DNA of 64,000 nucleotides from an uncultured bacterium (GCA_965541585.1 CBEUCH010000001.1:1-64000); one strand, 5' to 3'. Shown: positions 40,775-54,232, counted from the first letter of the stretch. Notes: generated by a model from the sequence alone, not told the origin. Made by a program: numbers and translations.

Positions 40775-41890
40775 ATGAAGATAATTCATACATCAGCGGT
40801 CCACTTTGGGAGACCGTTCACAGATCCCGGAATGCCCGGCGATAAACTGAGGGCCGGGATAAAGTCTATTTTCTCAAAAATCATCGACATAGCTAATGAG
40901 GAATCGGCTGAACTGCTGATATTGGCCGGAGATACATTCGATAATTTGAATGTCTCCCAAAATCTGCTGGATTTCTTTATCAGCGAGGTTAAACGGTTGA
41001 ATAAGACTCGTGTGGCAGTTCTACCCGGATCTCAGGACCGATACGAAAAGGGAAGCTTCTGGGAGCAATGGAGGATACTCCAGCCGGCGGAGAATCTCTA
41101 TATTCTGGGCGATCCTGAGAAGCTGTACGTTGAGATTCCCGAGATTTCTGTTACCGTTTACGGTTATTCGCCAGCGAGCGATGATAAGGCCGATGATATT
41201 CCGGGACAGCTGAAAATCATCGATGGATCTGATTTTCATATAGCGGTTTTATATGGTCATCTGAACTCAGATCCAGATCAGAATCAAAGCGAATTCCCAT
41301 TGAGCTATGATAAGCTGGCATCTATCCCATTTGACTATATTGCATTTGGCGGCCAACCGGAGTTTCGGAGTTTCGTGGACGTCGGCTTGCGGGCCGCTTA
41401 TGCCGGTTCACCTGTGGTGCTATCGCCGGAATGGAAAGATGCCGGTAATATTCTATCAATAGATCTGCAAAAGGACTCGCTGAATGTGGAGCCAAGGAAG
41501 GTGGATGGATTCGTCTGGAAAAAGACCGAGATTTCGATGGAAGCAATAGCCAATCTGGAAGACTTGAAGAACAGGATTATCGAGATGGCCGGACCGAACA
41601 CCTCTTTGAAGGTTACTCTCTCGGGCCTGGCGCTTCTGGAGGCCGGATTGAATCTGGATCATCTTCGAGACGAACTGGAAGATCAATTTCTTCATCTCGA
41701 GTTTATCGACCGGACCAGGGTTTTGCCGGATAACATATCCGAGGTTAAGGTTCACGAGAAAACGATATTGGGCCAATACCTGAAAGTGATGGTCGATAAA
41801 TTGAACAAGGCCTCGGGGTCTGAAAAAGAGGATCTGGAAAAATCTATGAAGATCGGATATTCGCTTTTATCGGGCAGGGAGATCTGGTAA
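40775..41890 (+). CDS. Mre11/SbcD/YhaO-like metallophosphoesterase-fold protein with degenerate active site
   Basis: IIHTSAVHFG, LAGDTFD, PGSQD, DYIAFGG, YAGSP; adjacent to an SMC-like ATPase. Confidence 0.8.
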   Translation: MKIIHTSAVHFGRPFTDPGMPGDKLRAGIKSIFSKIIDIANEESAELLILAGDTFDNLNVSQNLLDFFISEVKRLNKTRVAVLPGSQDRYEKGSFWEQWRILQPAENLYILGDPEKLYVEIPEISVTVYGYSPASDDKADDIPGQLKIIDGSDFHIAVLYGHLNSDPDQNQSEFPLSYDKLASIPFDYIAFGGQPEFRSFVDVGLRAAYAGSPVVLSPEWKDAGNILSIDLQKDSLNVEPRKVDGFVWKKTEISMEAIANLEDLKNRIIEMAGPNTSLKVTLSGLALLEAGLNLDHLRDELEDQFLHLEFIDRTRVLPDNISEVKVHEKTILGQYLKVMVDKLNKASGSEKEDLEKSMKIGYSLLSGREIW

Positions 41891-41891
41891 A

Positions 41892-44009
41892 ATGCAGATC
41901 TCTCATATCATATTAAAGGATTTCGGCCGGTTTGGAGACTTCTCGTGTGATTTCTCACCCGGTTTGAATCTCATCAAAGGCCCCAACGAAGCCGGCAAAT
42001 CAACCCTGGCCGAGGCCATAACGGCGGTACTCTTCGTGGACCCGGCGTCGAGGGGTGAAAAAATCCCGAGGGCCGTCAACTGGGGGGGCAGCCACGGCCC
42101 GGTAATAGAAGCGGTTTTAGATGTCGATGGCAGTTCATTCAAGCTGACCAAAGATTTCGGGCAGGGTATCGTGGAGATGTCAAAAGAGAACGAAGCGGTA
42201 TCATCGGGCGAAACCGGGACCATTAATACCTGGGTATCTGATAAACTCGGAATACCTTCCCCGGAAATCTTCAAGGCCACGGCCTGCATTGGCCAGGGAG
42301 AGATAAGCCATATTGATGATTCCATTGAAGCGATTAAGGATAAACTGGAATCGCTGGTTACCGGAGGCAGGGAAGAAATGGCCGCCTCTATTACGGTCAA
42401 GAAAATTCGCGAGAGAATGAATCAGATTGCCGGGGAAGATGGCCAATCCGGGGGAGAAATCGGAGGAATCAAGGCGCTCGTTGATGAACTCGGCTATAAT
42501 GTCGATAGGCTTCAACGCGATATTGCGAGCCTGGGAGAGAAAAGAGCCGATCTGATACAGATGGAGACTACTTTCAGAAACGTAGCCGAGGACCTGTCAT
42601 CAAGTAAAGAAAAACACAAGCTTGGTTCAGAAGCCTGTGAATATGAAAAGAGAGTCTCAGCACAGGCTTCGGAGTTTGACCAACTCGATAAGAGAATAAA
42701 GCGGGCCGGAGAGGCGAAGGAGAAAATCGAGTCATTGAAATCCGAACGATCACAATTTATGAAGATAACCCGGGATGAGATAGTCGATATCGAGCAGATT
42801 GAAAGCAGCCTGAATCACCTGTCAGCCAAATATGCCGAGCTGGAGGAAGAAGCTTTAGAGACAGAAGGAGATTTAACCGGGTATAAGACTGGCGGGATCC
42901 ATGACGTACCGTCCCTGGTAGGGTTATTGTCCAGCGGTCTTTTTGCTATTTCACATTCTCAGGGTTTTTTCCCCGAATTCTATCCTCATTTGTGGTATGC
43001 GCTTGGCGGATCTCTTGCGCTTTTAATGCTCGGCCTTTCGATTATGATCTCAAGAAGGCAACATCGCACCTTTCTATCGAAGAGGTACGATAAGCTTGCC
43101 GGTAAGCTTGATAGTCTGAAAGGAGATATTGAGAGCCGGAAGAACAGGCTGTCCGAAAAGCTTCAGCAGTTTTCAGTATCTACTGTGGAAGAGTTGAAAA
43201 GGAGCCTCTGGGGGTTAGAAGAGAATGAAAAGCGAATCGAAAAGGAGACATCGTATTATAATGAGATACTCAGCGGCCAAACCCTCGCCGATTTGCAGAA
43301 GCAGCATAGCGATCTGAGTCAGCAGTTGGAAGCTGCATCCAAGGAGAAAGAGAGATTATCGCAATATATGACTGACTCTGCAGATCTCGAGAGGCAAAAG
43401 CTGGTGATCAATGAATTCGAGGAGAGGGTTAAGGATCTGGAGCGCGAGCGAGTTATTCTCCTTCAGCAGATCGAGACCGCGGAGGGGGGATCGGAGCTTT
43501 TGGCAAGCTACCTCGAGCGTAGCGAAAGGACGAAAAACAGAATGGAGGTCCTGAAGCGCGAGCTGGCCATTCTTGAACTGACCGCCCAGTGTATTGAGGA
43601 AGCCCGCTATAATGTTCTGGTCTCGAAGCTGGATGTTTTAAATAAGCAGACATCAAAAATCCTCGACGACCTGACATCGGGCCGTTATTCGAGAGTGCGT
43701 TTCGATAGATCGAATCTGAAATTTGAAGTCTGGTCAGATGATAAGGGCGAGTGGCTTTATCCGGAGAAATGGCTCTCGGCCGGCACAATGGACCAGATAT
43801 ATCTGGCTGCCCGTCTGGCCCTTGCCGATATAGTCTCGGAGGAAAAGAACTCAATATTGATACTGGATGATCCCTTCGCCAGCTACGATGAAAAGCGGTT
43901 GGAGAACGCTATGAAGGTCATAAAGGAACTTTCGGCAAACCATCAGATTTTGCTCCTCACCAGCCAGGACCATTACGATAAATGGGCTGACTCAACCATC
44001 AATTTGTAA
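41892..44009 (+). CDS. YhaN/SbcC/Rad50-like SMC-type ATPase with central TM hairpin
   Basis: GPNEAGKST Walker A, Q-loop IGQGE, coiled coils with two hydrophobic segments, LSAGT signature, LILDDPF Walker B. Confidence 0.88.
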   Translation: MQISHIILKDFGRFGDFSCDFSPGLNLIKGPNEAGKSTLAEAITAVLFVDPASRGEKIPRAVNWGGSHGPVIEAVLDVDGSSFKLTKDFGQGIVEMSKENEAVSSGETGTINTWVSDKLGIPSPEIFKATACIGQGEISHIDDSIEAIKDKLESLVTGGREEMAASITVKKIRERMNQIAGEDGQSGGEIGGIKALVDELGYNVDRLQRDIASLGEKRADLIQMETTFRNVAEDLSSSKEKHKLGSEACEYEKRVSAQASEFDQLDKRIKRAGEAKEKIESLKSERSQFMKITRDEIVDIEQIESSLNHLSAKYAELEEEALETEGDLTGYKTGGIHDVPSLVGLLSSGLFAISHSQGFFPEFYPHLWYALGGSLALLMLGLSIMISRRQHRTFLSKRYDKLAGKLDSLKGDIESRKNRLSEKLQQFSVSTVEELKRSLWGLEENEKRIEKETSYYNEILSGQTLADLQKQHSDLSQQLEAASKEKERLSQYMTDSADLERQKLVINEFEERVKDLERERVILLQQIETAEGGSELLASYLERSERTKNRMEVLKRELAILELTAQCIEEARYNVLVSKLDVLNKQTSKILDDLTSGRYSRVRFDRSNLKFEVWSDDKGEWLYPEKWLSAGTMDQIYLAARLALADIVSEEKNSILILDDPFASYDEKRLENAMKVIKELSANHQILLLTSQDHYDKWADSTINL

Positions 44010-44105: not shown

Positions 44106-44600
44106 ATGGATAATTTATGGGCAGCTTGGCGACGAGACTTCATATTAGGCCCTAAGAAGAAGGGTTGTGTTTTTTGCACCCGGATCAGACAAAGAGCAGA
44201 TCGTCGGAATTTGATTGTTTATAGAGGCAAGCGGAATATTATCATTATGAATAAATATCCCTACAATGCCGGGCACCTGATGGTTGTGCCGAAAGCCCAT
44301 AAGGGAAAGCTCGGTAACCTGACCTCTTCCGAATCGAATGAAATGTTTGAATTGACCAGAAGATCGGTGGAGGTTCTCGAAAAGGCAATGCCTGCAGACG
44401 GCTTCAATATCGGGCTGAACATAGGTTCCGATGCCGGGGCCGGCATAAACGACCATGTTCATGTTCATATTGTTCCCCGGTTCAAGGGAGATACCAACTT
44501 CATGACCGTGGTCGGTGAAGTCAAGGTTCAGTCTTTCTCCATGGTCGATATATACGATATGATAAAGCCCGGCTTCGATCAATTGAGGACCAGATCTTGA
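44106..44600 (+). CDS. HIT family protein (Ap4A phosphorylase/FHIT-like)
   Basis: CVFC, NKYPYNAGHLMVVP, GFNIGLN.G..AGAGI.DHVHVHIVPR..GDTNF. Confidence 0.92.
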   Translation: MDNLWAAWRRDFILGPKKKGCVFCTRIRQRADRRNLIVYRGKRNIIIMNKYPYNAGHLMVVPKAHKGKLGNLTSSESNEMFELTRRSVEVLEKAMPADGFNIGLNIGSDAGAGINDHVHVHIVPRFKGDTNFMTVVGEVKVQSFSMVDIYDMIKPGFDQLRTRS

Positions 44601-46195
44601 GGATTCCGAAGAAAAAAGAGCTTTTAGAGCTTCAAAAAAAATATCGCACCGATAAGAAGATCGGCGAGGTCTATGGTGTCCCGGCACGTCTTGTGGCATA
44701 CTGGCGCAGCAAAAAGAAGATAGGCCCATATTCATTTCCGAAATATGGCGAGGAGAAGATCTTAGAGCTCTGGGAAAGGTACGGGGATGATGCCAGGGCG
44801 GGCGCGGAGCTCGACATCTCGGCGGCCGGTTTCAGGCAATGGAGGCGGAAATACGGAATTAGCAGAAAGCCGTTGCAATTGAGACTGGAACAGCTCGAAT
44901 TGGGTCTCATAGATCCGGGCCGGAAGAGGAATTCCCGAAGGGAGACTGCTGTGCAGAAGATACTGGCCAGAAAGTCGGGCCTCAAGAGAGTGGAGGTCGG
45001 GCAGATAGTCAACGTGGAGCCGGACCTCGCCATGTCGCATGATAATTCTGATCTGGTAATTGATTATTTCAAGCAGATCGGAGCGCCCAGGATCTGGGAT
45101 CCGAATAAAATCATAATAGTGCTGGATCGTAGAATGCCTGCCGAATCACATGAGGCCGCCGAGGCTCAGAGGACGATCAGGGAATTTGTAAAAAAACAAA
45201 AGATCAAGAATTTCTATGACATAGGCGAGGGCGTCTGTCATCAGGTAGTGGTCGAAAAGGGTTTTATGCTGCCGGGGCAGCTTGCCACAGGGACCGACTG
45301 GCATGCCACGTCGTATGGGTGCCTGGGTGCGGTATCGACCTATGTGAGCACCTCCGAAATGGCCGCGATATGGGCCGTTGGAAAGATATGGCTGCGAATC
45401 CCACCCTCATTAAAGATTATTGTCAACGGAAGCCTGGGGCGAGGAGTCTATGCCAAAGATATTATGCTGAAATTGATTCGCGATATGTCTCCCGATGCCA
45501 CAAACTACAGAGCGCTCGAGTTTCATGGTTCGACTATTGCTGGGATGTCGGTTTCGGAACGGTTCACAATGACGATTGTCGCTATGGAGATGGGGGCCAA
45601 ATCGGCGATGGTTCCATTTGATGACATCACCGGGCGATATTTGAAAAAAATCACCAAATCCCGGCTGACGCCGATCAAATCGGACCCCGATGCAATATAT
45701 GATGATGAAGTAGAGATTGACATCAGCTATCTGACCCCGCAGGTGGGCTGTCCCGAGGGCTCCAGAGGCGTGGTGCCGGTGGAGGAAACCAGCGGCAGGA
45801 GGATCGACCATGTCGTTGTCGGATCCTGCGTAAACGGCCGAATCGACGATCTGGAGATCACCGCCAGGATTCTTCGGGGGAGAAGAATTCATCGCGATCT
45901 AAGGATGATCATAGTGCCCGGCTCGCGGAAGGTGCTGACGGAGGCTCTTGACAGGGGATATATAAAGACATTCATCGAGTCCGGCTGTCTGGTTGTAAAT
46001 CCGGGTTGCTGGCCATGTCCAGGTGCTCACTCGGGAAACATCGCGAGGGGGGAGAGAGTCCTGACCGCCGCCGGCGCCGGTTATTATCGCAGTGACGAAT
46101 CTAACAATTCCGAGGTATATCTGGCTTCTCCTGCAACTGCGGCCGCCTCCGCGCTGGAGGGGGCCATCGCCGACCCCAGAAAGTATGTCAAATGA
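44597..46195 (+). CDS. Tandem-HTH fused to LeuC/HacA-like aconitase large subunit (degenerate active site)
   Basis: Two HTH-like repeats in residues ~1-90, then a LeuC-like body (TAVQKILAR, GVCHQ, AKD, GSCVNGRIDDL, PGCWPC, YLASPATAAASA); TTG start overlapping the HIT stop. Confidence 0.85.
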   Translation: MRIPKKKELLELQKKYRTDKKIGEVYGVPARLVAYWRSKKKIGPYSFPKYGEEKILELWERYGDDARAGAELDISAAGFRQWRRKYGISRKPLQLRLEQLELGLIDPGRKRNSRRETAVQKILARKSGLKRVEVGQIVNVEPDLAMSHDNSDLVIDYFKQIGAPRIWDPNKIIIVLDRRMPAESHEAAEAQRTIREFVKKQKIKNFYDIGEGVCHQVVVEKGFMLPGQLATGTDWHATSYGCLGAVSTYVSTSEMAAIWAVGKIWLRIPPSLKIIVNGSLGRGVYAKDIMLKLIRDMSPDATNYRALEFHGSTIAGMSVSERFTMTIVAMEMGAKSAMVPFDDITGRYLKKITKSRLTPIKSDPDAIYDDEVEIDISYLTPQVGCPEGSRGVVPVEETSGRRIDHVVVGSCVNGRIDDLEITARILRGRRIHRDLRMIIVPGSRKVLTEALDRGYIKTFIESGCLVVNPGCWPCPGAHSGNIARGERVLTAAGAGYYRSDESNNSEVYLASPATAAASALEGAIADPRKYVK

Positions 46196-46695
46196 AGAAA
46201 ATGATCAGGGGCCGCGTCCACCGGCTGGGGCATTATATCAGTATCCGTGACATATTTCCCGACTCGCACCTTTCGTTGACCGATCCGAGTGAGATGGCGG
46301 TACATGCGCTTGAAGGCTGCGATCCCGAGCTATCGTCGAAGATCAAAAAGGGAGATATAATTGTCGCCGGCAAGAATTTCGGGAACGGACCGCAAAGGGA
46401 ACAGGCAATCCTGGCATTGAAAGAGGCCGGTGTCGCATGTGTGGCGGCAACTTCATTCGGCCGTGTTTTTTACAGGGAGACGATAAATTCCGGGATGCCG
46501 CTGGTGGAGCAGCCTGAAGCTTATGAAAAAATCAAAAACGGCGAGACCATCGAAATTGACTTGGACGCGGGAGAAATCCACTGTAAGAAAGGGCCGCTGA
46601 AATTCGATCCCCTGCCGGATTTTATGATGAGGATGCTCGATGCCGGCGGCTTGATTCGGTATACGAAGGAAACTATAAAGAATCGACATTTATAA
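46192..46695 (+). CDS. LeuD/HacB-like small subunit (degenerate)
   Basis: GDIIVAGKNFG.G..RE.A, SF.R.FYR..IN.G.P, AGGL motifs; ATGA-type overlap with the upstream gene. Confidence 0.85.
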   Translation: MKKMIRGRVHRLGHYISIRDIFPDSHLSLTDPSEMAVHALEGCDPELSSKIKKGDIIVAGKNFGNGPQREQAILALKEAGVACVAATSFGRVFYRETINSGMPLVEQPEAYEKIKNGETIEIDLDAGEIHCKKGPLKFDPLPDFMMRMLDAGGLIRYTKETIKNRHL

Positions 46696-47037: not shown

Positions 47038-47087
47038 TAATCCCTATTGGGAGATATATGGAAATGGCGAAAGAAACGGGGAGCGCG

Positions 47088-49409
47088 ATGGCCTTAAAAA
47101 GATTTGTGGTGCTGGCTCTGATATCGTTTTCGATAGCCACGGTAGCATCGGCGCAGATGACGCCGGAGCAGAAGAGATTATACGAAGAGTATCTAAGGGA
47201 AAGGGCCGGTGGCTCGACATCGGCCGGTATTAGCGATTTTGACCACTATATCACGCCGCCTGTTTTTTCGAACCGAGGTTTAGATCTTATAGATGAACGG
47301 GCTCCGAAGGACACGGTCGTGGTATCGCTGCCGTCATCGGCCGGTGAAATCAAGATGTTCGGTTATAACATGTTCGAGGGTTCCCCGGAGAGTTTTTCAC
47401 CCATAATGGAGGCCACGCCCCCGCCGGATTACAAGCTTGGACCGGGCGATAACGTCCTGGTTAACATCTGGGGCCGGGTCGATATGCAGCTGGAGTTGAC
47501 TATTGACCGGGAAGGCAAAGTCTTCATCCCGAAAGTAGGCGAGATTATCGCCTGGGGTCTGACCATGGAGGGTTTCAAGAAGCGTCTCCAGACTTCACTC
47601 TCCAAATACTATACCGATTATGAGCTATCAGTATCGCTGGGGAAGATCAGGCGGATTAAGATCTTCGTATACGGGGAGGTTAAGAAACCCGGAGGTTATA
47701 CGATATCGTCTCTATCCACTCTCTTCAGCGCTCTGCACATGGCGGGAGGGGCAAATGGAAACGGTAGCCTTCGCAACATCAAGCATATCAGACATAACAA
47801 AGTCGAAAATGAGATTGACCTCTACCGGTTCCTCTTGACCGGTGACAATACGCAGGATGCGGAATTGCATTCCGGCGACGTGATTTTCATACCAGTAGTG
47901 GGGCCCAAGGTGAGCATTACCGGCCAGGTGAAGAGGCCGGCGATATACGAGCTTTTTGGCGCTGAAAGACTATCCGATCTTATTGAACTGGCGGGCGGTT
48001 CTACGGCTGAGGCTCATCTGGAGATGGTCGATGTTGATCGGATCGCCGAGGACGACAACCGGATCCTGCTGACAGTAGATCTATCCGATGAACAATACGA
48101 TGATGACAATAATCTGGTTCTCTTCGATGGTGATAGAATCCGTGTTCCCTCTATGTTCGGGCTGCAGAAAAATACTGTGACCCTGGCTGGTCATGTCAAG
48201 CATCCCGGCTCTTATGAGTTAACCGATTCGATGAGGGTATCCGACCTGATCGATGGCGGAGAGCAGCTGATAAGAGATTCCTTCACCAAAAGGGCGAATC
48301 TATTCAGGACCTGGCCTGATCTGACTCGTGAAGTCTATGCCGTTGACATCGATAGGATAATTCGCGGGACAGATTCTGATAATTACCTGCTGATGGATAA
48401 AGACAGTCTTGTGGTTTATTCGCAGAGCGATATCAGGCGGCGGATGACGGTTTCAATCTCGGGCACCGTTAAGGATCCGGGAACATATGAGTACTTTCAG
48501 GGCATGAGGCTGTCGGATTTGATATTTCTGGCGGGAAACGTCCTGAAGCAAGCTTATCTCCTTCGGGCGGAGATCGCCCGCGTCGATCCCGGCAGGCCTG
48601 CGGATATGATCTTTGCAAATCTCGAAGAAGCAATCGAGGAAAAGATCGGGCCCAAAGATATCCTGCTCGAAGAGGACGATATTGTCTACATCAGATCCAT
48701 TCCCCGCTACCGAATTGGGCAGAGTGTTATAATCGAGGGGGAGGTAGAGTTTCCGGGGAGTTATGCATTAATCCAGGAAAATGAGCGGTTGCTCGATTTA
48801 TTTGAACGCTGCGGTGGATTGACACCCGATGCTTTCCTCGAGGGGATGGTCTTCAAGCGAGAATCTATAATAATGGATTTAGAAAAACATCAGGTCATAG
48901 CCATTCTCGCCTCCACCGAGGCTACGGTGCTGGACAGTCTGAATCGTCCAATACCCAAATTGACGGGGGAACTCAACATGAGCCGGGTCAACAGGATCAT
49001 CATAGATACCAACAGGCTATCCCGGAATCCTGATTCGCCCGACAACGTTGCGCTGCGCAACGGAGATTATATCTATATACCGCAGAAACCATCGGGTGTT
49101 CAGGTTCTGGGCGCGGTAGCATCATCAGGAACCATATCGTTTGAATATGATAGGAAGCCCGGATATTTCATAAACGAGGCCGGGGGATATACAGTCAATG
49201 CAAATAAGGGCCAGGTTAGGCTGGTCAAGGCGAACGGTAGGATTTTTGCCGGGAGGAGGGCCTTTAAAAGGGAGGTCGACTCCGGAGATGTCATTGTCGT
49301 GCCCTACAAGTTGAAAAAAGAGAGGGAATGGCTCCGTTCGACTGGATCGATGTTGGGAATCGTAGCATCTATCGCCACGACCGTATTCGTGATCGATAGG
49401 CTGCGTTAG
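47088..49409 (+). CDS. Polysaccharide export protein with multiple SLBB domains (Wza/KpsD-like)
   Basis: Signal peptide; PPDYKLGPGD, IDREGKVFIP.VG, repeated GEV..PG.Y / L...GG SLBB units; C-terminal amphipathic helix. Alternative start at 47058. Confidence 0.9.
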   Translation: MALKRFVVLALISFSIATVASAQMTPEQKRLYEEYLRERAGGSTSAGISDFDHYITPPVFSNRGLDLIDERAPKDTVVVSLPSSAGEIKMFGYNMFEGSPESFSPIMEATPPPDYKLGPGDNVLVNIWGRVDMQLELTIDREGKVFIPKVGEIIAWGLTMEGFKKRLQTSLSKYYTDYELSVSLGKIRRIKIFVYGEVKKPGGYTISSLSTLFSALHMAGGANGNGSLRNIKHIRHNKVENEIDLYRFLLTGDNTQDAELHSGDVIFIPVVGPKVSITGQVKRPAIYELFGAERLSDLIELAGGSTAEAHLEMVDVDRIAEDDNRILLTVDLSDEQYDDDNNLVLFDGDRIRVPSMFGLQKNTVTLAGHVKHPGSYELTDSMRVSDLIDGGEQLIRDSFTKRANLFRTWPDLTREVYAVDIDRIIRGTDSDNYLLMDKDSLVVYSQSDIRRRMTVSISGTVKDPGTYEYFQGMRLSDLIFLAGNVLKQAYLLRAEIARVDPGRPADMIFANLEEAIEEKIGPKDILLEEDDIVYIRSIPRYRIGQSVIIEGEVEFPGSYALIQENERLLDLFERCGGLTPDAFLEGMVFKRESIIMDLEKHQVIAILASTEATVLDSLNRPIPKLTGELNMSRVNRIIIDTNRLSRNPDSPDNVALRNGDYIYIPQKPSGVQVLGAVASSGTISFEYDRKPGYFINEAGGYTVNANKGQVRLVKANGRIFAGRRAFKREVDSGDVIVVPYKLKKEREWLRSTGSMLGIVASIATTVFVIDRLR

Positions 49410-49517
49410 GGAGCGGGTGAAGCGATTGATGGATATCACAGGCAAGGAATCGTTAAGCCGAAGAAGTTAGAAGCCGGGTAGAAAATTTCGAGGGATCAAT
49501 AAAAGCAGAGGTGTGAT

Positions 49518-50693
49518 ATGCAAAGGAGACTGGTTAGAATCGCAAATGCGGTATTGGATCTTGAGCCTTATAACGCTGCGGAGGGACGATATCCGCGCCT
49601 GAACGATTTGCGCTCTGGGATTCTGAAATTGGATCGGAACGAAACGACGGTTGGGCCATCGCCGGCGACAATCGAGGCGATCAAGGATTTTATAGTCAAC
49701 CGTCCGTTGAATTGGTATCCCGATCCTGACGCTGAAGAGCTAAAAATAAAAATCTCCAAATATGTATCGCACCCGCTGGATCACATAAGCTGTTATGGCG
49801 GAACCGATATAGCCCTTGAACATATCGCCAGGACGTATCTTGAGCAAGGCACAGAGATGGTGATCAGTGCGCCAGTGTTTTCAAATGTGTGCGTTGCTGC
49901 GAAAAGTACCGGCGCCAGGGTAATCGAGGCATTTCACCCGGATCCGTTCAATCCAGGTATCGAAACCCTCGTGGACCATATCGGCCCTCGGACCAGGATG
50001 ATATACATCTCAAATCCAAACGATCCAACGGGGGCGCTCTTTAGCGAGGCCGAACTCGTATTCCTGCTGGCTTATGCTGAGAATGTGATGATCGTCGTGG
50101 ATGAGGCGTATTTCGAATACTGCGGCAGGTCGGCCATCGACCTGGTAAAGAGGTTTCCCAATCTCACGATTGTCAGATCGTTTTCACATGGTTTTGGTCT
50201 GGCGTCGCTGGGAGTCGGGTATATAGTCTCTGCTCCGGAGAATCTCGAGTTTATCCAGAGAATCAAAACGGGATACAGCATAAACAGCGTTGCTCAGATA
50301 GCTTCATTTGCGGCCTTAGAAAGCCATGATTACTCAAAAGAATATATGGTCGCAGTCGACCAATCCAGGAAAGTACTTTCTAGCAGTCTTCCTGAGATTG
50401 GATATGAGTTCCGGATGACGCCGGCGAATTTCTTCCTCCTTAAGGTTTCGGAGCCCGAAGAAACCGCTGAATCTTTAGAGCAGAATGGGATTCTGGTTCG
50501 AAATCTGACGGACACAAAACAAATGGATGGCTATTTGAGGGTAACTATCGGGACGCTCGAGCAGACGGACAGGTTGCTTCTGGTACTGAGCAGGCTTGCC
50601 GAGAAATTCGCCACCGGTTTCAATCGAAATCGCATAGTAGAAGGAGCGGCTGAATCCGTTGACAGGCTAAAGAAACCGGTCCCGGTAAAATGA
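49518..50693 (+). CDS. HisC-like class I/II aminotransferase-fold protein lacking the PLP lysine
   Basis: KLDRNE, YPD, NPNDPTG, VDEAY, RSFSHGFGLASLGVGY, ANF, LRVTIG. Confidence 0.8.
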   Translation: MQRRLVRIANAVLDLEPYNAAEGRYPRLNDLRSGILKLDRNETTVGPSPATIEAIKDFIVNRPLNWYPDPDAEELKIKISKYVSHPLDHISCYGGTDIALEHIARTYLEQGTEMVISAPVFSNVCVAAKSTGARVIEAFHPDPFNPGIETLVDHIGPRTRMIYISNPNDPTGALFSEAELVFLLAYAENVMIVVDEAYFEYCGRSAIDLVKRFPNLTIVRSFSHGFGLASLGVGYIVSAPENLEFIQRIKTGYSINSVAQIASFAALESHDYSKEYMVAVDQSRKVLSSSLPEIGYEFRMTPANFFLLKVSEPEETAESLEQNGILVRNLTDTKQMDGYLRVTIGTLEQTDRLLLVLSRLAEKFATGFNRNRIVEGAAESVDRLKKPVPVK

Positions 50694-52102
50694 TGCGAGC
50701 ATCCTTGCATAATTTTTACAGGCGGACGGGATTCGCAGCCGTCGAGGCTGCCCGAGGTGCCGCGGCATTATTGCCGTTCGGACTCAATAAACGGAGGAGT
50801 TTCTGGCGGCATCTTAAGTTTTTGAGGGAATCACAGTGGAAGCCTCCGGAGTGGCACGTTGAATATCAGGAAAAACGGCTGAGATTATTGATGGATTTTG
50901 TATCCAGGGACGTTCCGTTTTATATCGATATTCTCAGAAAGGAGAATATTGCTCCCGATTCGATCCGAAACCTCCACGATCTTGCAAAGCTGCCGGTAAT
51001 CTCGAGATCGACCCTGAAGAATAATCTGCATAGATTTCTGCCCGGGGACGCCAAGCTTGGCCCGGCGTCCCACGGGTCCGGTGCTGTTTCGAAAACTGCA
51101 TCCGGCTTTCCGGTTGAGAAAGAAGCGGCGATAATGGAGGAGGCCCTCATCGCACGACATTGGGAGAATTGCGGGTATGAGTTAGGTCAGCCGGTAATTT
51201 ATCTAACGAACAGTTCGTCCGGTAAAGAGCGTGATCCCTATGTTTACGATGGAAATCATAACCGGCATTGTTTTGACGTAAGCCTGCTGACGGCAAAAAA
51301 TCTCTCGGAGTACTGCCGAAAATTAAAGGCGACTGATGCGGATTTCATATTCGGCTATCCCAGCGCTCTCGAAATCCTGGCGGATTCTATGATTCACTGG
51401 GGAATAGAGTTCGATTTTCTCGGCGTGATGAGCGCCCGGGAACTTTTGACCGATACGGCCCGGGCGAAAATAGAAGAGGGCTTCGGCGCCAAAGTTTACG
51501 ATTGGTACGGCCTGTCGTTCCCGGCCGCAAGTATGGGGCAATGTCATTATTGTGAAGGCTATCATCTGTTTTCCGAAGGCGGAATTCTCGAGCTGGTCGA
51601 TTTCGACGGGAATCCGGTAACGAGGAAAGGGACAGTCGGGCGGATGGTCGTAACAAACCTCACGAATCATGCCATGCCCTTAATTCGATACGATACGGGA
51701 GATCTGGGGGTCTACTGCGGCGAACCATGCCGTTGCGGGAGGGGCTTGCCGAGGATCGTGGAGAAGATTCCGGGCCGAACGCAGGATCTTCTGATAAGCG
51801 ATGATGGCCGGTATATAGAGCCGGGTAGTATTTATGCCCTGTTCTCAGAGTTCGGCATACCGGCGGCGAAATTCCAGATTATCCAGAACGACAGAGGGAG
51901 TTTTTCCATCAAATTGGTTCAGGATCTCGAATGTCGTGAGGAGATAATAAGTCGTCTGAAAAAGGCGCTGGCCGAACGTATCGGCGGAGAGCCGGAGATC
52001 GCGGTGGAGGTTGTTGATAAAATCGAGGCTGAAGGCGGCGAAATCATATCAGTTACCAGAAAGTTCGGTCTTGCTAATAAAGATGCCCTGCAGCCGGCAT
52101 GA
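50690..52102 (+). CDS. Phenylacetate-CoA ligase/CapK-like protein
   Basis: VPFY, LAKLPVI, GYPSAL, VVTNLTNHAMPLIRYDTGD, CRCGRGLP, GR..D. Confidence 0.8.
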   Translation: MMRASLHNFYRRTGFAAVEAARGAAALLPFGLNKRRSFWRHLKFLRESQWKPPEWHVEYQEKRLRLLMDFVSRDVPFYIDILRKENIAPDSIRNLHDLAKLPVISRSTLKNNLHRFLPGDAKLGPASHGSGAVSKTASGFPVEKEAAIMEEALIARHWENCGYELGQPVIYLTNSSSGKERDPYVYDGNHNRHCFDVSLLTAKNLSEYCRKLKATDADFIFGYPSALEILADSMIHWGIEFDFLGVMSARELLTDTARAKIEEGFGAKVYDWYGLSFPAASMGQCHYCEGYHLFSEGGILELVDFDGNPVTRKGTVGRMVVTNLTNHAMPLIRYDTGDLGVYCGEPCRCGRGLPRIVEKIPGRTQDLLISDDGRYIEPGSIYALFSEFGIPAAKFQIIQNDRGSFSIKLVQDLECREEIISRLKKALAERIGGEPEIAVEVVDKIEAEGGEIISVTRKFGLANKDALQPA

Positions 52103-52159
52103 AGAATAAGAGGATGACCGTCGGTCCAGATAAACATTGAGATTTTAGAGATTCAGGTG

Positions 52160-54232
52160 ATGAAAATGATAGAAGCGAGATTGAGGCCCTTTGTTGCCCG
52201 GGCCCGATTGGGAGGAAGAAAATGGCTAAAAAGAATGAAGCGGCGCCTGAGAGTAAAACCGATAGATGATTTTTTTGAAAGTCACTGGAAAGGGGCAGAG
52301 CCGTTATCCAATCGTTTTAGTCGCCGGGATTTGTCCTGTTTCTTTTTCACTTCCACCGATTATCGGAAATATGCGGAAGCTCTCAAATCACATTTTCCCG
52401 ATTCCTGTGATCAGGTCATCAGGAAAGCCTCTGATGTTGTAGACAACTGGTTCAATTTCCTGGGGACCGGTGATCTTCCTCTCGGAGAGGATATAGATTG
52501 GCATATCGACCATAAATCCGGGAAGCGCTGGCCGGACGGGCATTATTCAGGAGTGCAAATTGCCGATCTCAATGAAAATAAGGATGTGAAAATTCCGTGG
52601 GAGCTTTCGCGACTGCAGTTTTTCACCGACCTCGGGCGGGCATACTGGCTGACCGGAGATAACATTTATGTGGAAAAATTCAAGAATCTATTAAGCGACT
52701 GGGAGAGGAAAAATCCCGTGGATATGGGGCCCAACTGGACTTGCAGCATGGAGGTCGCGATCAGGGCCATCAATATTATCTGGGGGATCTATTTTTTCTC
52801 CGGCGCCGAGGCTATCGACGATGAATTTGTAAAGAATGTCATAAGGCTGCTTTATTATCATGGTTTGCACATAGAGAATAATCTCGAAGATATTTATGAC
52901 GGCGCCAATACGAACCATCTCGTGGCCGATTATCTGGGCCTTTTCTATCTTGGAGTTCTATTTCCGGAATTTGATCGATCCGAGGAATGGCGATCGAAAG
53001 CGATCAATGGCATGCAGAAGGAAATAGAAATACAGGTATATCCCGACGGCACCGATTACGAATGCTCGACGTCATATCATAGATTGAAGCTGGAGATGTT
53101 TCTCTCGGCGTTCATACTGGGCCGAATGAATTCTATCGAGTTTAATTCCGTATACAAAGAGCGTCTTCATCGTATGATACATTTCTCTGCGGCTATTACG
53201 GCGCCTTCCGGTAAGTCGCCTTTGATAGGCGATAACGACGACGGGTTCATAGTAAGGTTAGCGAACAATGATCCGGCCGATCATCGGCATCTGATCGATA
53301 CAGGCTCATTGATCTTCGGCGAAAAGGTGCCGGGGGATAATCCCATCTCCGAGGAAAGATTGTGGTATCTGGGGATAGACTCGCTGGTCCCCTATAGCGC
53401 CGGCGCGGAGCCGAGATCGCAATGGTTCAAGGATAGCGGATTCGTGATTATCCGGAATAGAAATCTGCACATGGTATTCAGTGCCATAAAAGCTTCAAAA
53501 CTTGCGATGAGCGGGCATAAGCACAACGATCTGTTGTCCTTCACGCTCGAAATCGACAGGATACCTTTTCTTATCGATCCCGGCACCTTCTGCTATACTG
53601 CGGATTACCAGATGCGAAATCTCTCCAGATCCACCAGACTGCACAATACTGTTACGATAGATGATACCGAGCAAACCCGATATTTCAAGAAGAGATTATT
53701 CTATATGCCGCCGGATGCTGATCCCAGAGTGAACCTGTGGGTGAAAGTCGGCAATTGCGCTGTGGTCTCTGCCACACATGACGGTTATTCAATGCTCGAC
53801 GATAACATCCTGCATAAGAGAAGCGTCTGGACGTCCATGGCAAATTATACCTTTCTGATTGTCGATGAATTTTCGGGAAGATCCAGGCACAGTCACACAT
53901 TTGACTTGAGGTTTATAACGCCGCTGGACAGGGTCGTACGGACTGACAATTCGGCCGTCTCGATTCAAAGCCGCCGAGCCGGGTCCCTGACGATAGGACC
54001 ATTGGATAGCGGGGCGGAGACGCTCAACATAGAGAAGGCCTTCTACTTCCCGCGTTACGGCGTAAGGCGGCCTGCGAATATCATAAAATATTCCTACAAA
54101 AGCAAGACGCCGTTTAAAGTCGCTACATTGATCTCCTACAGTGCGAAACTCAGCGGCAGTTCAAGTGAGCTCCGGATTGCAGCCCGGAATCTTGAAGAGA
54201 GATTTCAAGAGGTTGGAGTGGGGATTTCATAA
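52160..54232 (+). CDS. Heparinase II/III-family (alginate lyase-like) protein
   Basis: KIPWELSRLQF, NW..MEVAIRAIN, NHL, YE.STSYH, IGDNDDG, GHKHNDLLSF, DPGT..Y, HNTV. Confidence 0.88.
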   Translation: MKMIEARLRPFVARARLGGRKWLKRMKRRLRVKPIDDFFESHWKGAEPLSNRFSRRDLSCFFFTSTDYRKYAEALKSHFPDSCDQVIRKASDVVDNWFNFLGTGDLPLGEDIDWHIDHKSGKRWPDGHYSGVQIADLNENKDVKIPWELSRLQFFTDLGRAYWLTGDNIYVEKFKNLLSDWERKNPVDMGPNWTCSMEVAIRAINIIWGIYFFSGAEAIDDEFVKNVIRLLYYHGLHIENNLEDIYDGANTNHLVADYLGLFYLGVLFPEFDRSEEWRSKAINGMQKEIEIQVYPDGTDYECSTSYHRLKLEMFLSAFILGRMNSIEFNSVYKERLHRMIHFSAAITAPSGKSPLIGDNDDGFIVRLANNDPADHRHLIDTGSLIFGEKVPGDNPISEERLWYLGIDSLVPYSAGAEPRSQWFKDSGFVIIRNRNLHMVFSAIKASKLAMSGHKHNDLLSFTLEIDRIPFLIDPGTFCYTADYQMRNLSRSTRLHNTVTIDDTEQTRYFKKRLFYMPPDADPRVNLWVKVGNCAVVSATHDGYSMLDDNILHKRSVWTSMANYTFLIVDEFSGRSRHSHTFDLRFITPLDRVVRTDNSAVSIQSRRAGSLTIGPLDSGAETLNIEKAFYFPRYGVRRPANIIKYSYKSKTPFKVATLISYSAKLSGSSSELRIAARNLEERFQEVGVGIS

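Follow-up and report, generated by a model that had tools for sequence, protein, structure and literature searches.

A putative beta-clamp-binding helix-turn-helix protein on a pseudoenzyme LeuC scaffold in the Zixibacteria

Introduction

IRP1 and IRP2 are RNA-binding regulators derived from aconitase, and IRP2 is catalytically inactive; their RNA-binding site is the aconitase cleft, and they lack a helix-turn-helix (HTH). The archaeal-type LeuCD-HacAB enzymes (M. jannaschii MJ0499, 4kp1, and MJ1003, 4kp2; PRK00402, TIGR02087) combine the same fold with a two-subunit layout and three cysteines. The roles of the catalytic residues His101 and Ser642 and of the three cluster cysteines are set out in the available text of PMC8184944.

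The hexameric clamp-binding motif is given as Q-phi-x-[L/M]-x-[F/L], together with the residues of its pocket, in the accessible portion of PMC11139829. Hexapeptides that bind the E. coli clamp tightly include QLVLGL of Pol IV, QVELEF of Pol III alpha and QLSLPL of Hda, and on the B. subtilis clamp such peptides are at least tenfold weaker (10.64898/2026.05.27.728225, in the part available). A DNA-binding factor can also carry such motifs: phage MuC needs its clamp motifs for transcription (available text of bioRxiv 10.1101/2025.01.04.631326 and PMC12867686), and these are terminal pentapeptides of a small phage protein (PMC12867686, same portion). In the accessible parts of the literature surveyed, clamp-dependent control of transcription is represented by phage cases alone (Mu, T4).

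Here, we analyse a locus from an uncultured bacterium of the phylum Zixibacteria, contained in a 64,000-nt stretch of DNA (GCA_965541585.1 CBEUCH010000001.1:1-64000; the window), in which a LeuC-type large subunit is preceded by tandem HTH repeats and a candidate clamp motif. A preliminary description of this DNA had taken the protein (HTH-LeuC) and its LeuD-type partner for a dedicated heteromeric Fe-S sensor that gained its HTHs as it lost catalysis. That interpretation, as a whole, is partly supported by the results below.

Results

The locus comprises three overlapping genes on the plus strand. A HIT-family gene (44106..44600) with an intact HxHxH, whose closest solved relative is an AP-4-A phosphorylase (3ano, E 1.3e-31), ends in a 4-nt overlap with the start of HTH-LeuC (44597..46195; 532 aa, TTG start), which in turn overlaps by 4 nt the gene for a LeuD-type small subunit without its catalytic Ser (46192..46695; 167 aa). 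Both subunit ORFs are intact, as had been read from the sequence at the outset, when translational coupling to an intact HIT hydrolase was also proposed. Residues 117-528 of the large subunit (44945..46180, plus strand) form a LeuC/HacA-type aconitase body under purifying selection, which matches NCBIfam PRK00402 at 456 bits (cut-off 385); the small subunit matches LEUD_arch at 166.5 bits (cut-off 109). The full-length AlphaFold model of HTH-LeuC has a mean pLDDT of 88.8, and its top Foldseek match is MJ0499 (4kp1; E 1.4e-51, rmsd 2.3), with IRP structures also among the fold matches.

This body is catalytically dead. Compared with intact relatives, it keeps the three cluster cysteines (C411, C471 and C474, spanning 45827..46018 on the plus strand) and six of 13 other active-site positions (H148, D177, H215, D234, H236 and E331), whereas the DH His (R178), the DSH Ser (W235), N327 (now Ile) and all four scored NRNF..GR positions are gone. 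In the small subunit DTD reads SIR and GSSRE reads GPQRE, with loss of the GSSRE serines. By a mapping of motifs to residues, we take R178 to be the equivalent of His101 and the GPQRE site that of Ser642. Of the attributes of an active LeuC/HacA enzyme, the fold and the three cysteines are thus present, and the catalytic His, the Ser base and NRNF..GR are absent. The full LeuC/HacA body, the cluster cysteines and the two LeuD substitutions had all been recognised in the preliminary description. Its account of catalytic motif loss needs one correction: the family normally has ME here (NLSMEMG), and in the N..E motif the Asn alone is lost and the Glu retained.

In the AlphaFold model the N-terminal head consists of two three-helix units with block pLDDT of 85-91, repeat 1 at residues 6-39 (44612..44713, plus strand; helices 6-16, 19-26 and 30-39) and repeat 2 at residues 52-85 (44750..44851, plus strand; helices 52-62, 65-71 and 76-85), as expected from the tandem HTH-like repeats first seen in the sequence. 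Profile matches are weak for the window's own protein (Pfam HTH_Tnp_1, E 0.016); among heads of the family, 15 of 21 match HTH_23 at E<=1 (best 3.8e-7). The structures closest to repeat 1 (Z 5-6) are DNA-binding domains of the HTH type, each match being weak by itself (best Z 6.1, rmsd 2.2, 44 residues aligned), and the head shows a three-helix HTH fold with a basic surface, its net charge ranging from +5 to +16. W59, G63, D65, W82 and R83 of repeat 2 are invariant across 118 heads; P92 and L95, upstream of the clamp motif, are also invariant. Fold searches placed the head in no named HTH family (GcrA, Fis, Mor/MuC or resolvase type), which does not show that the fold is new: there was no Foldseek match at E<=0.001, no match to the sequence of a solved structure below E 0.035 and no significant match to Mor (1rr7, E 2.1), and VIA Z scores of 4.5-6.1 were scattered over unrelated families, with Atlas scores of 0.76-0.78. 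No relatives of the head occurred in viral contigs among 64 candidate stretches.

Of 285 genomes of the phylum, 265 carry the head, among them 194 of the 198 of good quality, with one match in all but three genomes. Among the 120 matches listed, homologues are 526-547 aa long and cover 98-100% of the query, and every source name that gives a taxon gives Zixibacteria; among a set of 80 matches, 44 are labelled Zixibacteria and the remainder carry generic or other labels. Since the same architecture recurs across the phylum, the HTH-LeuC fusion is not due to chance. Of the best 150 matches in a 50%-representative library, 28 carry the LeuC body and the other 122 present the same HTH repeat in fragments or arrays, three of them with a clamp-like motif. 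Coverage beyond the phylum comes from these two sets of 80 and 150 matches. An alignment search for the head in eight of the 20 genomes that miss it found nothing, and two of these eight (G241 and G107) also have no HIT gene at E 1e-10. Two genomes of one family, f13 (completeness 95% and 74%, in 240 and 470 contigs), have HIT in another context and no head, so that the HTH-LeuC gene may not be essential. A locus scan with a single protein returned mostly ordinary LeuC genes. Members of the family are annotated as 3-isopropylmalate dehydratase.

Conservation of the head ends with QLELGL (residues 99-104; 44891..44908, plus strand), a candidate hexapeptide beta-clamp motif absent from the preliminary description and assigned here by conservation, modelling and the published motif definition. 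Across the 118 heads, Q99 is invariant (118/118), position 100 is Leu in 112, 101 is Glu in 100, 102 is Leu in 95 and Phe in 22, 103 is free, and 104 is Leu in 68, Phe in 48 and Ile in 2; at residue 105 entropy jumps and conservation collapses. The form Q-phi-x-[LM]-x-[FL] fits 93 of these heads, or 115 with Phe allowed at position 4. In the full-length monomer model residues 96-112 have pLDDT <50, so that the conserved motif is not packed on its own protein there. As 21 of the genome's 2817 ORFs contain the strict form QLxLx[LF] (and 106 a broad form), presence of the motif by itself means little; the argument lies in its conservation within a segment modelled as unstructured.

A complex of residues 1-116 with DnaN of the same genome, modelled with three controls, scored 0.75 against 0.00 for the best control. 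Among solved complexes 116 of 157 attain the pass mark, and among mismatched pairs 2 of 215, a calibration only roughly valid here, where our own alignments were used. The runs share 90% or more of their contacts, with a partner pLDDT of 74 or higher. In this model Q99 and L100 contact DnaN residues 365-368, 320 and 344, and L102 contacts 170-175, 246, 363 and 365, which by motif correspond to subsites II and I, respectively, of the E. coli clamp (pocket residues as in the accessible portion of PMC11139829). The motif is thus predicted to fit the canonical peptide pocket of its own DnaN. Because clamp-peptide complexes have already been solved, the pass may show likeness (a memory effect) and not binding, and any such hexapeptide might dock likewise. 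Judged from the motif and the model together, binding of the head to the beta clamp is, taken alone, likely. No Hda over the cut-off and no YabA was found in any of the five genomes tested, which leaves room for another clamp-linked regulator and does not point to HTH-LeuC.

The same head could also belong to an ordinary sequence-specific regulator, at first a trigger enzyme, that makes no use of the clamp and in which QLELxL is a dimerisation or HIT-binding strand. A tandem HTH with invariant recognition-helix residues would suit such a protein, as would the best fold matches of the head, which are repressors and activators (Z 5-6); AlphaFold draws residues 93-104 as a low-confidence helix, and the docking can be a memory effect. 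However, the conserved positions 1, 2, 4 and 6 and the free position 5 are those of the published clamp hexapeptides, the alternating leucines fit an extended strand, and no clear operator enrichment was seen upstream of the operon. This last point was addressed in a context set of the window and 120 further loci, from 18 of 20 families, chosen for long contigs and family spread and not at random. A search of about 230 nt upstream of HIT at these 121 loci for 7-mers, 8-mers and spaced dyads gave counts at or barely above the maxima of shuffled sequences (11 families against 7-9, 7 against 5-6 and 7 against 6-7); by eye, sigma70-like boxes alone recur there, and scanning the window for promoters yielded 7 sites where 4.3 +/- 2.1 were expected. 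We regard a clamp-free regulator as unlikely, though the best placed of the alternatives.

The cluster and the catalytic state were followed across the family in 114 copies of at least 470 aa, after seven short, split or cut copies had been dropped. Intact enzymes account for 17 of these, all in families f4, f15, f16 and f17, where LeuD is also intact at 16 of 16 scorable loci. The same head therefore sits on an intact active site in 17 of 114 copies, and the suggestion that HTH gain was tied to catalytic loss does not hold. The other 97 copies are dead: three cluster cysteines remain in 17, two in 6, one in 17 and none in 57. LeuD is adjacent in 32 of the 115 loci with enough downstream DNA. 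With catalysis, LeuD and the cluster dispensable across the family, a dedicated Fe-S sensor cannot be the family-wide job, contrary to what had been proposed for the pair.

Such a sensor could still be restricted to a lineage, as a LeuC-LeuD heteromer in which sensing of iron, oxygen or redox switches DNA binding, perhaps at the polysaccharide operon, and it would be compatible with clamp docking. The 120 best matches, a set biased toward close relatives, include 65 dead proteins, of which 54 keep all three cysteines; retention per site is 85-94%, compared with 8-29% at the His, Ser, Asn and Arg sites that were lost and a background of 62%. All three are likewise found in 8 of 10 copies of the window's own family (f1), in 7 of 15 of f10, and in G252 and G253, which keep only 1 of 13 other active-site positions; IRP1 is a precedent that also appears as a structural match. 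This selective retention in dead close relatives leaves room for sensing here and suggests that this lineage probably holds a cluster. Against a sensor, 80 of the 97 dead copies are short of at least one cysteine (57 of all three) with the head unchanged; a protein 89% identical to that of the window (P0007) has Tyr at Cys3; LeuD is absent beside the gene at 5 of 11 f1 loci; and the export gene of the polysaccharide operon lies near HTH-LeuC in 1 of 121 loci. The homologues with cysteines kept and His and Ser lost that the preliminary description had sought exist among close relatives, whereas family-wide the cluster ligands are not conserved wherever the head is. In this lineage the cluster is more likely structural than an essential signal, and we consider an Fe-S switch improbable.

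The polysaccharide operon is indeed next to the locus in the window, as first noted, but with its first (export) gene at a single locus of the context set we rejected a link between that operon and HTH-LeuC. The HIT gene, in contrast, immediately precedes HTH-LeuC in 119 of 121 loci and stands 0.9-1.2 kb ahead of it in the remaining two, the 4-nt overlap is found at 51 of 94 measured junctions, and HxHxH is intact in 106 of 106 aligned proteins; the other neighbours differ from family to family. The conserved partners are HIT and, judged from motif and model, the beta clamp. So fixed a coupling, together with the clamp motif, could be that of a repair or nucleotide-sanitising adaptor, in which the clamp and the HTHs recruit HIT to Ap4A produced at the fork or to adenylated DNA ends, regulation playing no part. 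SbcD-like genes (26/121 loci) and SbcC-like genes (32/121) would fit this, but the Sbc-like pair is missing from most families and the HIT protein resembles a mycobacterial Ap4A phosphorylase, and we hold such an adaptor to be quite improbable.

Loss of catalysis has not been followed by decay. Measured against the nearest relative (L031), dN/dS is 0.08 for the body and 0.06 for the head, and the median for the body is 0.16 over 15 dead pairs and 0.08 over 4 intact ones, numbers that come from few and non-independent pairs. Across families, identity among dead copies is 0.61 for the head and 0.28 for the body (0.75 among intact bodies), and what the dead body conserves, across 14 dead families, is mainly structural Gly, Pro, Asp and Glu positions. 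The preliminary description was therefore right to see an HTH-bearing pseudoenzyme and not a decaying copy, and the pseudogene reading was rejected. A decaying leuCD duplicate with no present role, to which the active-site motifs that vary at random among dead lineages, the intact paralogues and a few split or frameshifted copies (G261, G005 and G008) might point, is largely refuted by these values, by the conserved structural positions and by retention in nearly all good-quality genomes, and is very improbable indeed.

In a tree of head and HIT (62 rows, up to four per family, quick method, midpoint root), each family forms one group and the distribution of intact and dead states requires two or more changes, the deep branches being poorly resolved. 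If dead enzymes never revive, catalysis has been lost more than once. As to canonical aconitase-family genes elsewhere in the genome, which the preliminary description had proposed to look for, three other intact sets are present, beside idh, a LeuB-like gene and a PrpD-like gene. Genomes of intact-enzyme families have 3-4 aconitase-family matches each and those of dead families 2-5, so that no paralogue accounts for who kept catalysis.

Discussion

Four properties of HTH-LeuC were computed here: a basic tandem-HTH head, an exposed and conserved QLELx[LF], a LeuC fold that is under selection and non-catalytic, and a near-fixed coupling to HIT. On these grounds of sequence and modelling, we lean toward the view that HTH-LeuC is a housekeeping chromosomal DNA-binding protein tethered to the beta clamp and carried on a pseudoenzyme scaffold, a whole account that we grade below clamp binding alone. 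The beta clamp would enrich HTH-LeuC on DNA that has just been replicated, and there the two HTHs would hold the DNA at the loaded clamp. The output might be transcription, as for phage MuC, or replication or the state of the chromosome; it is the weakest step of the proposal, since no operator was found. The ancestor may have been bifunctional, an enzyme with a clamp-bound head, as f4, f15, f16 and f17 would still be. Catalysis would have been lost first, and LeuD and the cluster afterwards, more than once; these losses could have been tolerated because paralogues cover the chemistry. The present role of the body would be that of a scaffold, possibly one for HIT, which may turn over Ap4A-type nucleotides.

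Compared with LeuCD-HacAB, HTH-LeuC has a 112-residue head with HTHs and a clamp motif, has lost the acid His, the base Ser and the substrate Arg, and belongs to a family in which the small subunit is dispensable. It would share with Mor/MuC the nature of a DNA-binding factor with a clamp motif, clamp binding being modelled in the case of HTH-LeuC, but its motif is an internal hexapeptide and the protein is chromosomal, vertically inherited and enzyme-derived. Hda, Pol IV and the C-terminus of Pol III alpha have motifs of like form (QLSLPL, QLVLGL and QVELEF against QLELGL) for the same modelled pocket, whereas HTH-LeuC has no AAA+ or polymerase domain. The reuse of an aconitase fold for nucleic-acid control proposed here resembles that in IRP1 and IRP2, but the binding head of HTH-LeuC is a separate domain, and the cluster has been lost in most lineages. 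Finally, the upstream HIT protein resembles the mycobacterial Ap4A phosphorylase (3ano) and differs from it by its fixed coupling to HTH-LeuC.

The literature searched contained no paper on the HTH-LeuC family, in keeping with the earlier impression that the architecture is undescribed, although the table of a genome-wide clamp-motif survey could list it. We regard the parts as known, their combination as new and the function as putative, since the protein is not an active LeuC, is not an Fe-S switch family-wide and has a head that was placed in no named HTH family. Under its present annotation the family misleads metabolic reconstructions in lineages with a dead site.

The members of the family form a natural gradation between enzyme and pseudoenzyme. 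More tentatively, HTH-LeuC may be a phylum-wide, clamp-riding DNA-binding factor derived from an aconitase, which could have begun as a direct link between 2-oxoacid metabolism or Fe-S status and replication-coupled gene control, and of which all stages from enzyme to cluster-less scaffold would still be alive, with the head, the motif and the Ap4A-enzyme partner fixed. If the proposal is true, a chromosomal and near-universal HTH protein that docks on the clamp would represent a new link between replication and either gene control or metabolism for a whole uncultured phylum.

Variation among relatives of the HTH-LeuC protein

Among the catalytically dead homologues (P0003-P0122), former substrate-binding positions now carry new cysteines, which are found at the first N of NRN in 15 of 65 dead homologues and at the R of NRN in 16 of the 65. 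These residues might supply a fourth cluster ligand in the proteins that bear them. The window's protein has no cysteine at the positions where they were gained. In family f12 (loci L141, L143 and L144), a large subunit without the cluster cysteines is followed by a LeuD that keeps an intact GSSRE motif and is closer in sequence to another type of paralogue. Splits or frameshifts interrupt the large gene at L070 (genome G261), L125 (G005), L127 (G008) and L179 (G129), and these may be due to sequencing error.

Gene neighborhood and clamp-like motifs

Upstream of the HIT gene lies an SbcD-like and SbcC-like gene pair (window 40775-44009), with SbcD-like genes in 26 and SbcC-like genes in 32 of the 121 loci. 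The metal ligands expected in an SbcD-type nuclease are DxH and GNHD. Since HTSAVH and GSQD replace them at these motif positions, the SbcD-like protein of the window may be a degenerate nuclease. In L149, L150 and L151 (family f19), the gene preceding HIT, which may be RmuC-like, encodes short acidic xLF tails near its end. Downstream, window 47058-54232 encodes a polysaccharide export protein, a PLP aminotransferase, a 470-aa protein without a match in a Pfam search and a heparinase II/III-like protein; this group occupies that position only in the window's own genome. Elsewhere in the same genome, a 254-aa protein (G000:C4:183219-183983; L292:720-1484) ends in QLPLDF, another hexapeptide clamp-like motif. 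Pfam and NCBIfam searches with this protein gave no match, and its Atlas look-alikes are unnamed clusters (scores 0.91-0.95).

A possible origin of the head, and a second LeuC-type protein

Long tandem arrays of the head's HTH repeat occur in unnamed proteins (P0132, P0148, P0155, P0156, P0163 and others), one array protein being fused to a TFIIB domain, and such proteins are a possible source of the head. The genome also encodes a second, intact LeuC-type large subunit (G000:C1:455986-457459 and G000:C11:1-626; L293 and L294), whose gene is clustered with mdh-, sucCD- and idh-like genes. Its tail is a long Lys/Ala-rich repeat reaching past the contig end; contig C11 starts with the same repeat, followed by a very basic, histone-like stretch at the end. 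It is possibly another aconitase-family protein bearing a nucleic-acid-binding appendage.
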